A DNA stretch of 13,834 nt, taken from Clostridia bacterium (GTDB taxonomy: Bacteria; Bacillota; Clostridia; TANB77; RGIG9151). The stretch is from positions 1 through 13,834 of the forward strand of contig JAEEXS010000038.1 in the NCBI GenBank assembly GCA_016287855.1. The letters run 5' to 3'. Shown piece by piece: positions 1 through 8,829 of the stretch (the first letter of the stretch is position 1; each line of letters begins with the position of its first letter). The position numbers and the translations under genes are program-made. The notes under the pieces were generated by a model that worked only from the letters and a program-made list of their open reading frames with translations, was not told the origin of the DNA and did not search any database.

Positions 1-1
1 C

Positions 2-1201
2 GCCACCCTGGTCCTCATAGGACTCAATCGGCTTTCCTGCTCCACCCTGGTCCTCATAGGACTCAATCGGCTTTCCTGCTCCACCCTGGTCCTCGTAGGA
101 CTCAATCGGCTTTCCTGCTCCACCCTGGTCCTCGTAGGACTCAGTCGGCTTGCCAGGGACTCCGGGGTCCTCGTAGGACTCAGTCGGCTTGCCAGGGACT
201 CCGGGATCCTCGTAGGATTCACCACCGATGGTGCCGGGAGCGGTACCTTCATCCTCACCAAGAGGACGCCTGGGGTTGGGGTTCCAGCCGGAAGGCGGAT
301 TCCATCCACCAGAGGGCTGCGGCTTGTAACCGCAGATTTTGCATTCTCCGTAGCGGTTGAAGTCATGGCGCTCCAGCTTGGACTCCTGCTCTACGCCGAG
401 CAGAATCCCGCAGTCCTTACAATAGGTGTAAACCAGGCGGGAGATGATATGCCCATCTTCAGGAGCATCGGGATATACTCCCTGGCACTCCCATTCGCTA
501 TACTCATAACGAGTATGCTTGTGCTTGCAGGGCTCAGCGGTGGGGGTAGGCGTGGGTTCAGCGGTGGGGGTAGGCGTGGGTTCAGCGGTGGGGGTAGGCG
601 TGGGCTCAGCGGTGGGGGTAGGCGTGGGTTCAGCGGTGGGTTCGGGCGTGGGTTCAGGCGTGGGCTCCGGAGTGGGTTCGGGGGTAGGTTCGGGAGTCGG
701 CTGCGGAGTCACCGGAACGTAAATGATAATCTTTTCCGGCTCGGGCGGCTTTTTGTAGCCACACCGATCGCACACGTCATCGTCCCCGAAGTCATGACCC
801 GGTTCTACCGTGGTCCTCGTCGCCACCCATATGGTCTCACCACAATCGCCGCACTTCGCCCCTGCGTAGATATGATATTCCACGCAGGCGTCCTCCGTAC
901 CGACGATAATCGGGTCGGAGGTATAGTCCACCAATTCGTTGATGTCGTAGTGGATGTGCTGGCAGTCGTCGATGAGATTCAGATCCGGGGCAGTGCGTGC
1001 GAGCTGAAGATCGGACAGCTGCTTGCGCAGACCGTCGATAACAACTTTGCAGTCGCATTCGGCTTCGACCTTCCCGCAAACGGAGCACACGGGTTCGGCC
1101 TTCTCACCGTGGATATGATGCACGAGGCACCAAACCACGTGGCCCAGCAGGGCCAGGCACAGGATAACCAGGATAATTGTCAAAATGGGACGTCTCTTCA
1201 T
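2..1201 (-). CDS. Membrane-anchored/exported Cys-rich repeat protein. The 5' end is complete and the 3' end runs off the left window edge (400 codons visible). Not in the supplied ORF track.
   Basis: I checked every + strand triplet in register 2 mod 3 from 2 to 1201 and found no tta/cta/tca, so the minus frame is open for 400 codons. The ATG is at 1201..1199, with SD GAAAGGAGGA ending 9 nt upstream. The N-terminus MKRRPILTIILVILCLALLG is a basic-then-hydrophobic signal/anchor. Next come CSVCG..CDC, a CQH..CGDCG..HDF..CDRCGYKK module, a (EPTP)n/(AEPTPTPT)4 linker, a second module CKH..CKDCG..HDF..CKICGYKP, and then 13-aa ESYED repeats. Residues 1-150 align with the neighbouring 147-aa protein. 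Confidence 0.8.
   Translation of the reverse strand, partial: MKRRPILTIILVILCLALLGHVVWCLVHHIHGEKAEPVCSVCGKVEAECDCKVVIDGLRKQLSDLQLARTAPDLNLIDDCQHIHYDINELVDYTSDPIIVGTEDACVEYHIYAGAKCGDCGETIWVATRTTVEPGHDFGDDDVCDRCGYKKPPEPEKIIIYVPVTPQPTPEPTPEPTPEPTPEPTPEPTAEPTPTPTAEPTPTPTAEPTPTPTAEPTPTPTAEPCKHKHTRYEYSEWECQGVYPDAPEDGHIISRLVYTYCKDCGILLGVEQESKLERHDFNRYGECKICGYKPQPSGGWNPPSGWNPNPRRPLGEDEGTAPGTIGGESYEDPGVPGKPTESYEDPGVPGKPTESYEDQGGAGKPIESYEDQGGAGKPIESYEDQGGAGKPIESYEDQGG
3..236 (-). repeat. 39-bp head-to-tail tandem repeat, 6 units visible and truncated by the window edge. It encodes 13-aa units GKP(I/T)ESYED(Q/P)G(G/V)(A/P).
   Basis: Units start at 3, 42, 81, 120, 159 and 198. Units 1 and 2 are identical, and unit 3 differs by one a>g change. 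Units 4-6 diverge in their second half. The period is a multiple of 3 and in frame with CDS 2..1201. Confidence 0.9.
533..712 (-). repeat. 24-bp tandem repeat x4 (533-628) followed by seven degenerate 12-bp units (629-712). It encodes a Pro/Thr/Glu linker, (AEPTPTPT)4 then (EPTP)n.
   Basis: The units ttcagcggtgggggtaggcgtggg at 557-580 and 581-604 are identical. Those at 533-556 and 605-628 differ only at the first base. The array is in frame with CDS 2..1201. Confidence 0.9.
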
Positions 1202-1326
1202 TTTAGAACGTCCTCCTTTCATTATTTTTTTATATAAACCGATGTCAGCCCCATCGGATTCCAATGAAAAGGATATATTAAACATCCATCTCCCTTACAA
1301 GGGAGATTAAATCTATTTTTTCAGAC
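1202..1326 (-). promoter_or_regulatory. ~125-nt 5' leader of CDS 2..1201 with two hairpins.
   Basis: Hairpin 1 has an 8-bp stem, 1288-1295 / 1300-1307 (minus-strand RNA AUCUCCCU-UGUA-AGGGAGAU). Hairpin 2 has a 6-bp stem, 1239-1244 / 1252-1257, with a loop containing GGGCU. The SD is at 1211-1220. The leader is homologous to leader 1932..2055. The TSS position is inferred from the -10 box only. Confidence 0.5.
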
Positions 1327-1332
1327 ATTATC

Positions 1333-1361
1333 ATTATACCACATTATTATTTTTTTTGCAA
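1333..1361 (-). promoter_or_regulatory. SigA-type promoter with extended -10: TTGCAA-17 nt-TGgTATAAT.
   Basis: On the minus strand the -35 TTGCAA is at 1361..1356, the TGg at 1341..1339 and the TATAAT at 1338..1333. Confidence 0.6.
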
Positions 1362-1454
1362 CTAGTTATGTATACAGCTTGTCCTTATTCTTCTAATATT
1401 GCATAATAGTGCCATTTCCGCAATATTAAAATAATAAATATTTTTTTGTAAAAT

Positions 1455-1480
1455 AATACACCGGGGGCTGCCGGTGTATT
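1455..1480 (-). terminator. Rho-independent terminator after CDS 1488..1931.
   Basis: A 10-bp stem AATACACCGG / CCGGTGTATT (1455-1464 / 1471-1480) with a 6-nt loop. On the minus-strand RNA it is followed by AUUUUAC. It lies 8 nt past the stop codon. Confidence 0.7.
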
Positions 1481-1487
1481 GTAATGT

Positions 1488-1931
1488 TTATGAAATTTTA
1501 GTGTATCCGCATTCGATGCATTCGCCGTTTTCATTGAAATTATGAGAAATCTCGAACTCTTTGAGGGTTACCCATATATCTTCCCCACACTTATTGCATT
1601 TGTAAATTCTATCCACAGTATATGTGTAGCACACATTTTTTTCAAAAACATGTGTCGGGTAGGACTTCCACTCATCAATAAGGACTTCCCGCTCAGTGCG
1701 CGGATGCTGGCATTTTTCAATACTGTCCACATGTATCTCGCTATTTCCTAGTTGCTTCTCAGCAATAGATTCACAATAGGTGCATTTGTATTCCATCTGT
1801 CTACCACAAACAGGGCATGTAGCTTCCTTAAGCTTTACAGCAATGCTGGTATTGCACCCCTGCAAACCCAGACTCAGGATAACCACCAAAATAATCAGTA
1901 GCCAGCAAACAAAAGCACGACTATTTTTCAT
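1488..1931 (-). CDS. Small exported Cys-rich protein (147 aa), possible lipoprotein, and a paralog of the N-terminal 150 aa of CDS 2..1201.
   Basis: ORF-track entry 1488..1943. I prefer the ATG at 1931 because the SD AAAGGTGGA ends 7 nt upstream, and the track's first ATG lies inside that SD. The N-terminus is MKNSRAFVCWLLIILVVILSLGLQGC, a signal peptide with a lipobox-like LQGC. It carries CPVCG..CTYC, CQH, and CNKCG-x13-HNF-x5-CIECGYTK. Confidence 0.75.
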   Translation of the reverse strand: MKNSRAFVCWLLIILVVILSLGLQGCNTSIAVKLKEATCPVCGRQMEYKCTYCESIAEKQLGNSEIHVDSIEKCQHPRTEREVLIDEWKSYPTHVFEKNVCYTYTVDRIYKCNKCGEDIWVTLKEFEISHNFNENGECIECGYTKIS

Positions 1932-2061: not shown

Positions 2062-2089
2062 ATTATATCACACTCTCAGTTTTTTTCAA
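2062..2089 (-). promoter_or_regulatory. SigA-type promoter with extended -10: TTGAAA-16 nt-TGaTATAAT.
   Basis: On the minus strand the -35 TTGAAA is at 2089..2084, the TGa at 2070..2068 and the TATAAT at 2067..2062. Confidence 0.6.
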
Positions 2090-6935: not shown

Positions 6936-7007
6936 ATGAACAGAGCGTTAAAGATAACTCTTTTGGTAATTTTATTTTACATACTTCTTATTGAGGTGTG
7001 TATGTAA
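6936..7007 (+). CDS. 23-aa hydrophobic small protein MNRALKITLLVILFYILLIEVCM (candidate small membrane peptide). Below the size cut-off of the ORF track.
   Basis: The SD AAAGGAGG (6921-6928) lies exactly 7 nt before the ATG at 6936, and the TAA is at 7005-7007. A strong terminator starts 12 nt downstream. It is the only + strand unit in the window with a complete set of expression signals. Confidence 0.45.
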   Translation: MNRALKITLLVILFYILLIEVCM

Positions 7008-7018
7008 TTTTATCAAAG

Positions 7019-7057
7019 AAAAAGCGGGGACCAACACTCCCCGCTTTTTCTTTTTTT
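7019..7057. terminator. Bidirectional rho-independent terminator, shared by the small + ORF and the convergent acyl-CoA synthetase gene.
   Basis: The stem is GCGGGGA / TCCCCGC (7024-7030 / 7038-7044) with a 7-nt loop. An A-run lies at 7019-7023 and T-runs at 7045-7049 and 7051-7057. Confidence 0.85.
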
Positions 7058-7131: not shown

Positions 7132-8829
7132 CTATTGTTGGTTTTGTCCAACTTTCGCTCTCTTAATCTTATTAGTAGTAGTTTTTTCAAAAGCTTCTTT
7201 CCTTATAACCACCCTTGAAATTCTCTTATAGAACGGTAGCTTTGCGCAAACTTTAGCAATATCCGCTCTTACAGTAGCTTCAACATCTTCTATTCCTAAA
7301 TCTTTAACTGTCTCTTCATTTAATACAACTTCAGCACAAAGACCAGTTTCAGAACCATTTTCATCCTTAACTCCATATACAACAACCTCAGAAATATATG
7401 AGATTGAAGATATATAAAGTTCAAGTTCCTCAGGGAAAATATTCTTACCATTCTCTAAAACAATAAGGTTCTTCTTTCTACCAGTTATCATGAGTTGACC
7501 TTTTTCGTTTATCTTACCATAGTCTCCAGTATTAAACCAACCATCTTTTAATACTTCTGCAGTAAGATCTGGTCTTTTATAGTAACCTAACATTACTATA
7601 TCGCCTTTAACACAGATTTCCCCTTCTCCATTTTCATTCTTATTTTCAATTTTTACTTCACAGCAAGGAAGTATAACACCAACAGTTGCTGGATCATTAA
7701 ATTTAAGTTGGTTTACACTAACTAACGGAGAACATTCTGTAATTCCATAACCATTTATTAAAATTATTCCAATAGACTCAAAAAACTTAGCAAGTTCAGG
7801 TCTTAAAGGTGCACCCCCGCAAACTATCTCAATTAAATTACCACCAAAAGCTTCAAGAACTGATTTAAACAATTTCCTTCTTACGTCTATTCCAACCTTC
7901 CTAAGCGCATTACTAATAGCTATCATTACTTTTAAAGCGCCGGCTTTTCCAGACTTTTCAGCAGTGCTCCATATCTTTTTATAAAAAGCTTCTGCGAAGG
8001 CAGGAACAAGTAATATATAATCAGGTTTATAGAATTTTAAATTCTTTTCAACTGTCCTTAAATTCTCATTTATGCAAAGAGTTGCACGTCTTTGTATTGC
8101 TATTAATATTCCGCAAGTTGACTCATAAGTATGATTATAAGGCAAAACAGACAAACATCTTGTAAAAATATCTGCTACTCTTAAACCATGATAAACACAA
8201 CTTATTAAATTATGTTCTGTAAGCATAACTCCTTTAGCGATACCTGTAGTTCCAGAAGTATATACAAGTAATTTTAGCTCATTATCCTTGGTAGACAATT
8301 TATCATATTCGTTATTTCCATTAGAATATATCTCTCTACCCTTTTCTTTAAGTTTATTATATGATAAAAATTTTCCTTCATCTTCTTCTCTAGCGAAGCC
8401 AATAAATTGTTTGATATTAGGCATTTTATCTGCTAATTCCATAAATTCTTTTTCATATTTTTCAGCATAGAAAAGAATCGTACTATCGCTGTCATTTACA
8501 ACATTTATAATATCATCTATAGGAAGTTCTTTATCGACAGGAACCAAAACAGAATCGCTTTTTAGTACAGTAAGATAAACTGTAATCCAGTCATAACTAT
8601 TATCTCCAATAACTGCTATATGCGTGTTTTTAATGCCCATATTTAATAAAGCATTTCCAAGCGCATACGTATCATTTTGGGCTTCTTTATAGGTAACATC
8701 TACTACTTCTTCACCTTTTCTATATTTATAAGCAATATTATCTCCTGAATCTTTAACCGCTTTCTCTAGTAAATCCTTAACTGAGCTAATTTCTATAGCA
8801 TCGTTATATTTAATCTTATGTTTTCCCAT
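7132..8829 (-). CDS. AMP-forming long-chain acyl-CoA synthetase (COG1022 / FadD-like AMP-binding enzyme).
   Basis: A 565-aa ORF with AMP-binding motifs YTSGTTGIAKGV, GYGITECSP and WFNTGDYG...TGRKKNLIVLENGKNIFPEELE. The SD GGAGGGA lies 6 nt before the ATG at 8829. Confidence 0.9.
   Translation of the reverse strand: MGKHKIKYNDAIEISSVKDLLEKAVKDSGDNIAYKYRKGEEVVDVTYKEAQNDTYALGNALLNMGIKNTHIAVIGDNSYDWITVYLTVLKSDSVLVPVDKELPIDDIINVVNDSDSTILFYAEKYEKEFMELADKMPNIKQFIGFAREEDEGKFLSYNKLKEKGREIYSNGNNEYDKLSTKDNELKLLVYTSGTTGIAKGVMLTEHNLISCVYHGLRVADIFTRCLSVLPYNHTYESTCGILIAIQRRATLCINENLRTVEKNLKFYKPDYILLVPAFAEAFYKKIWSTAEKSGKAGALKVMIAISNALRKVGIDVRRKLFKSVLEAFGGNLIEIVCGGAPLRPELAKFFESIGIILINGYGITECSPLVSVNQLKFNDPATVGVILPCCEVKIENKNENGEGEICVKGDIVMLGYYKRPDLTAEVLKDGWFNTGDYGKINEKGQLMITGRKKNLIVLENGKNIFPEELELYISSISYISEVVVYGVKDENGSETGLCAEVVLNEETVKDLGIEDVEATVRADIAKVCAKLPFYKRISRVVIRKEAFEKTTTNKIKRAKVGQNQQ

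Follow-up and report, generated by a model that had tools for sequence, protein, structure and literature searches.

The 13,834-nucleotide stretch at positions 1–13,834 of contig JAEEXS010000038.1 (assembly GCA_016287855.1, from a Clostridia bacterium), referred to below as the window, carries at its left end two genes, long and short, that encode between them three copies of a cysteine- and histidine-rich module. These three modules belong to a large, uncurated family of repeats of about 75 residues found in secreted and surface proteins of uncultured anaerobic Clostridia. The explanation that we favour, with a probability of roughly 0.6, is that the family repeat is a structural building block in which two zinc-type ions per copy serve as extracellular metal staples; each copy would thus probably hold two such ions, which do outside the cell what disulfides do in aerobes. 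The initial annotation, made from the sequence alone, had described an extracytoplasmic Cys/His repeat without a nameable family, and this reading is essentially right: the repeat probably has two metal sites, and neither a solved structure nor a curated family is related to it. The genes of the window all lie on the minus strand; the two in question and their modules are as follows.

1..1201, minus strand: long gene, of which the 5' 400 of 475 codons lie in the window; the start is at 1201, and the remainder falls beyond the left edge of the window
749..964, minus strand: module A, residues 80–151 of the long protein (family profile match LONG/79-152)
320..529, minus strand: module B, residues 225–294 of the long protein (homology to the other copies, family profile)
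1488..1931, minus strand: short gene, 147 residues plus stop, whose product is a predicted lipoprotein containing a single knuckle and a single module and is a paralogue of the N-terminal third of the long protein
1497..1712, minus strand: module of the short protein, residues 74–145 (homology, family profile, AlphaFold model of residues 67–147)

When the translations of both genes were re-read, the three core patterns reported earlier were recovered exactly at their coordinates: CGDCG-x14-HDF-x5-CDRCGYKK at residues 117–151 of the long protein (module A), CKDCG-x13-HDF-x5-CKICGYKP at residues 261–294 (module B) and CNKCG-x13-HNF-x5-CIECGYTK at residues 112–145 of the short protein. All three modules also begin with C-[QK]-H (C80/H82 in A, C225/H227 in B, C74/H76 in the short protein) and contain the EW or DY pair, as had been noted. 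The core as first described had six Cys/His positions, with the leading C-[QK]-H recorded separately; that core is real, but the full set comprises eight ligand positions, and the mid-module Cys or His (C106, H251 and C101, respectively) is a conserved ligand position that was absent from the earlier list. The complete sets are C80, H82, C106, C117, C120, H136, C144 and C147 in module A; C225, H227, H251, C261, C264, H279, C287 and C290 in module B, which reads as the canonical CHHCCHCC; and C74, H76, C101, C112, C115, H130, C138 and C141 in the short protein. The three modules are homologous, their similarity being well beyond chance: BLASTP aligns the whole short protein with residues 6–151 of the long protein (31% identity, E = 3e-14), module A matches module B with E = 2e-6, and module B matches the short protein with E = 2e-4. 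Both proteins share the order hydrophobic N-terminus, four-Cys knuckle, linker, module. The N-proximal knuckle had been given as C-x2-C-G-x6-7-C-x1-2-C; it is present in both proteins, but with x5 rather than x6-7 in the long one:

1049..1087, minus strand: knuckle of the long protein, C39-x2-C42-G-x5-C49-x-C51
1773..1817, minus strand: knuckle of the short protein, C39-x2-C42-G-x6-C50-x2-C53

The full-length long gene is present at positions 7282–8709 of a public metagenome contig (L001), and its product is identical over the 400 residues encoded in the window. The sequence of the short protein (P0001) is likewise present on other contigs.

An exhaustive profile search over 1.84 billion representative proteins defined the family as 122 clusters at E ≤ 1e-3, of which 37 reach E ≤ 1e-10. 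Most of the matched proteins are 300–2,700 residues long and contain multiple matched stretches, with a maximum of 26, which bears out the kinship, suggested in the initial annotation, with repeats of large surface proteins of gut Clostridia. Iteration with a hidden Markov model (HMM) yielded about 810 copies in 121 proteins, and the iterated model matches all three window copies (LONG/79-152, LONG/222-294 and P0001/71-145, with domain E-values of 5e-16 to 6e-14). The distance from copy to copy has a median of 76 residues and is within 66–90 residues in 88% of cases, so that the arrays run head to tail without linkers. Those family members that bear names in their source are called 'hypothetical protein' (from a Mogibacterium and a Clostridia metagenome-assembled genome, MAG).

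The inability of the initial annotation to name a family proved to be well founded. Neither in Pfam nor in NCBIfam does any model reach its cut-off against the window proteins or ten family members, and no PHROG model passed its threshold; what these searches gave was low-complexity or sub-threshold zinc-ribbon noise. For the short protein the highest-scoring match, to DZR, has 16.3 bits where 27.3 would be required. In a scan of 143 copies taken singly, the number matched by any Pfam family at E ≤ 0.01 was at most 10, and the matching families were generic zinc-ribbon models. DUF6487 (PF20097) matches neither window protein; in the 19-copy protein P0002 it reaches 29.8 bits as a sum, with no single stretch significant and with only positions 41–63 of the 67 in the profile covered, and the match was also flagged as faint. 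Word-indexed homologue searches with the short protein, with residues 1–162 of the long protein and with the 143-copy alignment returned the query itself or nothing, scans of viral contigs gave no relatives, and full-text literature searches found no description of the repeat.

Eight positions stand out in the family alignment, C6, H8, H32, C44, C47, H63, C71 and C74, each conserved at 88–99%. They give the family pattern C-x-H ... H (or C) ... C-x2-C-G ... H-x-[FY]-x5-C-x2-C-G-[YH] in a repeat of about 75 residues, in which Gly48, [FY]65, Gly69, Gly75 and [YH]76 are also favoured. CHHCCHCC is read exactly in 648 of the 810 copies. The three His positions are conserved at 91–99%, and a His or Cys stands at or beside position 32 in all but two of the 710 complete copies. 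Exactly five Cys are present in 506 of those 710 copies (71%); the window copies have six. Throughout what is termed here the anchored subfamily (the long protein, the short protein, P0015, P0033, P0036, P0047, P0052, P0103, P0087 and P0110), His32 is swapped for a Cys one residue downstream, and window module A and the short module share this exchange. Some variants show a corresponding exchange at position 6, with H-x-H in place of C-x-H. Where a Cys of the first knuckle seems to be absent it is merely shifted, to give C-x-C-G or C-x4-C-G. This ligand conservation is a direct observation over about 810 copies. The odd number of cysteines, the conserved histidines and the exchange of His for Cys together point to these residues as metal ligands and not disulfide partners, in agreement with the original proposal of a metal site as opposed to chance cysteines, and metal binding is what we infer from them.

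Two shorter relatives of the module were seen within the same large proteins. One, of about 40 residues, reads ATCTEAG-x5-C-x2-CG-x10-IPALGH-x-[FWY]; the other reads H-x-H-x-F...HWH-x3-C-x-H...H-x-F-x5-C-x2-CGY. Both answer to the surface-protein repeats with which the initial annotation had compared the module. The proteins with these types are P0026, P0105, P0108, P0061 and P0098, and P0018 and P0062. Together with the module, both types suggest a wider superfamily of secreted Cys/His repeats. Separately, the gene for P0138, a protein of 2,476 residues with 26 copies, lies directly downstream of a gene for a sigma factor of the extracytoplasmic function (ECF) type and an unannotated gene of 430 codons (L165:4934-6741), which may be a sigma/anti-sigma pair that controls P0138.

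The extracytoplasmic location of the modules, also proposed at the outset, is well supported by sequence-based prediction. A segment resembling a Sec signal peptide or signal anchor precedes the first copy in 97 of 120 family proteins, and most of the remaining 23 are fragments beginning within a repeat. The domains to which the repeat is fused are choline-binding cell-wall repeats, PKD, Big_3, Lipase_3 (a class-3 lipase) and Peptidase_C39_2 (a C39-like peptidase). One family gene is situated within a cell-wall polysaccharide locus that also contains LytR_cpsA_psr, Wzz and MurJ. The short protein of the window begins with a positively charged n-region (MKNSR) and a hydrophobic h-region, after which comes the lipobox MKNSRAFVCWLLIILVVILSLGLQG-C26, its Cys within the first 35 residues; this fits the PROSITE rule PS51257, and lipid modification is predicted. 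The long protein is a predicted signal-anchor protein with its N-terminus inside. Like its closest relatives it combines a basic N-terminal tail and a single hydrophobic segment with Pro/Thr-rich linkers; matches of its own linker to Pfam were limited to PT and PARP, all below threshold. The parts of the two proteins outside the modules and knuckles are:

1121..1186, minus strand: signal-anchor transmembrane segment, residues 6–27 of the long protein, following MKRRP (hydropathy, mean Kyte–Doolittle value 3.4)
530..748, minus strand: Pro/Thr/Glu-rich linker, residues 152–224 of the long protein, encoded in 12- and 24-nucleotide tandem repeats
2..319, minus strand: C-terminal tail, residues 295–400 of the long protein in the window, a W-N-P-P segment followed by acidic repeats
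1854..1931, minus strand: lipoprotein signal peptide of the short protein, with lipobox L-G-L-Q-G-C26 (sequence and hydropathy)

The acidic repeats of the tail are of 13 residues, ESYED[PQ]G..GKP[TI], encoded in 39-nucleotide units; about 7–10 copies run from residue ~325 to 400 (2..230) and on to L001:8577.

The fold was approached by structure prediction and by covariation. An AlphaFold2 model of the short module (an 81-residue construct, with a 143-sequence alignment) has a mean predicted local distance difference test score (pLDDT) of 84 and is all beta, with three strands at residues 16–23, 36–46 and 52–61 of the construct; a prediction from an alignment of 3 sequences reached pLDDT 54 and was not used. 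Mean-field direct coupling analysis (DCA) of 692 copies (effective number of sequences, Meff, 624), in which pairs of invariant columns were ignored, gave three sets of contacts. The first (10-46, 11-45, 11-42, 12-45, 13-40, 13-42 and 17-36) is the segment after C-x-H running antiparallel to strand beta2, beginning at the first knuckle. The second (42-51, 41-50, 42-52, 33-60, 33-58 and 31-60) is the beta2-beta3 hairpin, whose register sets position 32 opposite positions 61–63. The third (65-76, 64-73, 70-77 and 29-76) is the last knuckle packed against the loop of position 32. These contacts are observed; in the model, the first knuckle would lie at the hairpin turn, and His/Cys32 and His63 at the open end, about ten strand residues away. 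Given this separation of turn and open end, {C6, H8, C44, C47} and {H32/C33, H63, C71, C74} constitute the only arrangement with two four-ligand sites, and each of the two C-x2-C knuckles most likely contributes to a metal site of its own. The first predicted sites are C74/H76/C112/C115 in the short protein, C80/H82/C117/C120 in module A and C225/H227/C261/C264 in module B; the second are C101/H130/C138/C141, C106/H136/C144/C147 and H251/H279/C287/C290, respectively. Eight stand-alone mini-units of the form C-x-H-x-[FWY]-x3-7-C-x2-C, with exactly four ligands each, were found, so that the second type of site can evidently stand alone. An early pairing of C6 with C71/C74, suggested by co-loss of ligands, was dropped after the covariation analysis; the copies that lack C71/C74 are terminal copies that keep a His at position 6.

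The mechanism that we propose is that each copy folds as a three-stranded antiparallel beta-meander held together by two tetrahedral metal ions, most likely Zn2+. Site one would lie at the turn of the beta2-beta3 hairpin and be formed by the N-terminal C-x-H and the first C-x2-C; site two, at the opposite, open end, would be formed by the mid-module His or Cys, the His of H-x-[FY] and the last C-x2-C. Such metal staples would, in a reducing habitat, stand in for disulfides as extracellular cross-links and render the module compact, rigid and resistant to proteases, a building block or spacer from which stalks on the surfaces of anaerobes could be assembled. The short protein would be a lipid-anchored, single-module version, and the long protein a signal-anchored, wall-spanning display of two modules with an acidic repeat tail.

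Several points weigh against this proposal. The first 20 residues of the AlphaFold model have a pLDDT of only 58–72, and the partition of the ligands into two sites rests on secondary structure, spacing and covariation rather than on inspected coordinates. With tandem repeats, DCA offers no formal means of telling contacts inside one copy from those between copies; the sites are placed within the copy because the single-copy short protein keeps all eight ligands. Zinc is indistinguishable from iron, nickel or cobalt by sequence. No structural neighbour that would anchor the fold was found in the PDB or BFVD, the best Foldseek E-values being 0.2 and 0.09, respectively, with TM-scores of at most 0.5. 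There is also no conserved operon partner across six family-gene neighbourhoods, and function has therefore been argued from anatomy; the role as a structural spacer is the weakest step of the explanation.

The chief alternative, which we regard as rather unlikely, is that the repeat handles metal instead, by capturing, buffering or sensing zinc or another metal at the surface. The very high density of ligands and the large copy numbers would suit such a role, and an array of 26 copies could hold some 50 ions. The anchored subfamily has additional clusters near the membrane (the G-H-x-x-W-C / HHxH motif, the four-Cys knuckle and CH-x2-C-x-VHCP), and the structured leader of the long gene, described below, could be regulatory. 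Set against this, Cys3His and Cys2His2 knuckle sites in characterised proteins bind their metal tightly and structurally, and surface zinc-scavenging proteins use sites made of His, Asp and Glu. Moreover, no zinc-uptake or Zur-type genes adjoin any of the loci examined, and the leader has no match to a metal riboswitch in Rfam.

Much less probable is that the repeat is an ordinary disulfide-rich extracellular module in which the histidines are incidental. Disulfides are the usual cross-link outside the cytoplasm, where these proteins reside, and the window copies do contain an even number of cysteines; across the family, however, 71% of complete copies have five, the three histidines are conserved at 91–99%, and His and Cys replace each other at positions 32/33 and 6. 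The C-x2-C-G spacing is typical of metal knuckles, and the hosts are anaerobes of gut or sediment, as judged from the SpoIIGA-bearing clostridial genome of the window and the gut MAGs of its relatives. It is slightly less probable again that the module is a redox or iron centre, with rubredoxin-like Fe(Cys)4 or an Fe-S cluster, used in extracellular electron transfer: although C-x2-C-G knuckles occur in rubredoxins and there are weak, sub-threshold matches to rubredoxin-like and desulfoferrodoxin models, the predicted distance between the knuckles is about one hairpin length and they are not expected to share an ion, each proposed site has at least one His, and the neighbourhoods examined contain no cytochromes or electron-transfer genes. 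Finally, the idea that these are cytoplasmic zinc ribbons of small membrane proteins whose signal sequences have been misread, which could appeal to the overwhelmingly intracellular occurrence of zinc ribbons and to genes for double-zinc-ribbon membrane proteins nearby in L001, is very improbable in the face of the positive charge N-terminal to the hydrophobic segment (MKRRP, MKNSR and the long basic tails of relatives), the lipobox of the short protein, the classical cleavable signal peptides and cell-wall-binding repeats of most family members, and the wall-spanning Pro/Thr linkers of the long protein and its relatives.

The proposed stapled module shares features with several known systems. 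As in zinc-ribbon and rubredoxin knuckles (DZR PF12773, Zn_Ribbon_TF PF08271, Zn_Ribbon_1 PF13240), its C-x2-C-G motifs are placed at the turns of beta-hairpins. In a zinc ribbon, though, both knuckles share one ion, whereas here they are predicted at opposite ends of a hairpin of about ten residues and are completed by C-x-H or by a His/Cys plus a His; the module also has about 75 residues and two predicted sites, and it is secreted. The first comparison with a zinc-ribbon or treble-clef site is accordingly refined: the module is not of the classical form of either, since covariation and the model put the knuckles at opposite ends of a long hairpin. Zinc-ribbon membership was rejected: a single shared ion is not borne out by the model and the covariation, and no match attains a gathering score. 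Tandem C2H2 zinc fingers resemble the family in their bead-on-a-string arrays, with a predicted metal site every 28–38 residues. Through the spacing H-x7-11-C-x2-C-G-x12-15-H-x7-C-x2-C-G, a profile search of PDB sequences arrives at a cumulative match to artificial and natural poly-finger proteins (Aart 2i13, E = 5e-9; PRDM9; CTCF). Matches to single fingers are insignificant (i-Evalue 0.01–2.5) and the Pfam zf-C2H2 models gave none. Kinship was rejected as similarity of periodic pattern, there being no H-x3-5-H pair and no helix in the model, and covariation placing His63 far from C44/C47; the module proteins, unlike those with classical C2H2 fingers, are secreted and bacterial.

Two extracellular systems invite comparison. 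The G5-E rods of staphylococcal Aap and SasG are elongated, all-beta, head-to-tail repeats on the Gram-positive surface, and zinc bridges their molecules. The module arrays are likewise predicted to be head-to-tail, all-beta and at the surface, and zinc would be relevant to both; the module differs in its Cys/His ligand pattern, there is no sequence relationship, and the Foldseek match to 5tu7 is very weak (rank 48, E = 1.4). The CXXC-rich variant-specific surface proteins of Giardia have C-x2-C motifs that are thought to hold metal and not to form disulfides only. They too are extracellular, packed with C-x2-C and made in an oxygen-poor habitat, but they are eukaryotic and unrelated in sequence, with another repeat unit and no conserved set of His ligands.

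The relatives of the long protein in the anchored subfamily have a common layout: basic tail, transmembrane segment, four-Cys knuckle, coiled-coil-like stretch, module, Pro/Thr linker, module and acidic tail. Within the knuckle, C39, C42 and C49 are invariant in this subfamily. At its outer end, the transmembrane segment has a conserved G-H-[IV]-x-W-C-[LI] followed by HHIH (residues 20–31 of the long protein, 1109..1144), a further Cys/His cluster at the membrane surface. Most anchored relatives also have DG-x-CH-x2-C-x-[VI]-H-C-P just ahead of module A, which both window proteins lack; the relatives with this CH-x2-C cluster are P0015, P0033, P0036, P0047, P0052 and P0103 (alignment columns ~128–140). 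The tail motif Y-[ED]-D-x-G-x-x-P-x-P-V occurs once at the C-terminus in the subfamily, and the 13-residue repeats of the long protein resemble an amplified form of it.

The codon usage of the long gene is unlike that of its genome. The gene has 60% G+C and a G+C content at third codon positions (GC3) of 0.65, against about 31% G+C for the genome and a GC3 of 0.17–0.22 for its neighbours; its codon adaptation index (CAI) is 0.24 against 0.68–0.77 for host genes, and 37% of its codons are rare in the host. The edges of this G+C island coincide exactly with the long coding sequence. The short gene is intermediate (GC3 0.43, CAI 0.45). The segments of the two genes that code for the transmembrane regions are 73% identical in DNA, and this similarity, taken with 90% identical terminators (see below), shows them to be tandem paralogues in a native frame. 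Family genes of other genomes share the GC3 of their neighbours, in one case in a genome of about 60–66% G+C. An open reading frame of 290 codons on the plus strand opposite the long gene (365..1237) was dismissed as a by-product of high G+C and repeats.

On four other contigs an anchored gene lies directly upstream of the GHL10/Cu_amine_oxidN1 and Cu-oxidase_4 genes, and on one of the four it lies directly downstream of YitT, as in the window. These positional orthologues of the long gene are:

L003:10001-11089
L004:238-1551
L005:334-1416
L006:194-1126

Several contigs break just upstream of the anchored gene. Across the loci the anchored proteins are 28–50% identical, compared with 71–84% for the neighbouring GHL10/Cu_amine_oxidN1 and Cu-oxidase_4 proteins, and the GC3 of the anchored gene is raised at every locus (0.34–0.65 against 0.17–0.28). 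More distant GHL10-bearing genomes lack the anchored gene. Recent transfer of a cassette was considered and rejected: leader, promoter and terminator look native and are shared with the paralogue, and all four positional orthologues are also raised in G+C. Old acquisition with slow amelioration, repeated replacement of alleles, or selection for rare codons may explain the codon usage of the long gene.

The expression signals of the two genes, in the window and at the related loci, are as follows.

1333..1361, minus strand: promoter-like site of the long gene, TTGCAA-17-TG-TATAAT; the same promoter is kept in L003–L006
1239..1330, minus strand: two-hairpin 5' leader of the long gene
2062..2089, minus strand: promoter-like site of the short gene, TTGAAA-16-TG-TATAAT
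1453..1482, minus strand: terminator hairpin ACACCGGCAGCCCCCGGTGT after the short gene, with a 90% identical copy after the long gene, outside the window
L003:9866-10000, L004:104-237, L005:199-333 and L006:60-193: equivalent leaders

The ribosome-binding site of the long gene, GAAAGGAGG, is 10 nucleotides upstream of the start. The two copies of the terminator are at positions 7003–7033 and 8814–8844 of L001. Hairpin 1 of the leader (1288..1307) has a TCTCCC/GGGAGA stem; hairpin 2 (1239..1257) has a CCGATG/CATCGG stem and a GGGCTGA loop and is followed by a T-run. The stems covary among genomes: hairpin 1 is either TTTGCC/GGCAAA or TCTCCC/GGGAGA, and hairpin 2 has five different stems around a conserved G[UG]GCUG(A) loop, with a U-run again after it. 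Four loci have in addition an outer stem, AAGUGG/CCACUU, around the two hairpins. With five sequences, these features do no more than suggest a conserved structured leader RNA, which could be an attenuator or a binding site. No Rfam family matches the leader. A metagenome scan with the leader pattern gave 75 matches, and since none adjoins a module gene they were taken to be due to chance. Unrelated to the modules, a glmS ribozyme scoring 80.5 bits is present where related contig L003 begins (L003:1-146), at the contig edge.

The remaining genes of the window encode YitT, two ABC exporter subunits, two AMP-binding ligases, SpoIIGA, a UDP-GlcNAc 2-epimerase, a family-4 glycosyltransferase and RpiB. 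This content, including SpoIIGA, indicates a low-G+C, spore-forming clostridial host, and the nearest genomes, as judged by GHL10, are uncultured Eubacteriales/Clostridia MAGs from animal guts.

Structural zinc domains as such are a familiar theme; the repeat would be a variation on it in an unusual place, outside the cytoplasm. It is tempting to combine the two strands of this analysis, in what can be offered only as a tentative and rather speculative joint reading, into a class of metal-stapled extracellular rods in Clostridia and, with it, a diversifying anchored gene with rare, G+C-rich codons, a leader and dedicated control or exchange. The rods would have a pair of staples per 76-residue unit in place of disulfides, arrays of up to 26 units and a fold without a solved relative; the anchored gene would have its coding sequence kept, or repeatedly renewed, in host-rare codons behind a conserved leader. 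A codon-aberrant, fast-evolving positional orthologue with its own leader poses a separate puzzle, namely how one surface gene is maintained so unlike its genome. For the repeat itself, the finding, if true, would add a domain family absent from Pfam and NCBIfam, and would provide both a name and a testable model for the giant 'hypothetical' proteins that gut and sediment Clostridia have, in their hundreds, at the cell surface. At about 75 residues, the module would be a natural, rigid and modular unit to build with and could be of interest for protein engineering, and the finding would bear on the amount of zinc tied up at such cell surfaces. If the staples are real, stabilisation of the zinc-finger type would not be confined to the cytoplasm but would be routine for the extracellular proteins of strict anaerobes.

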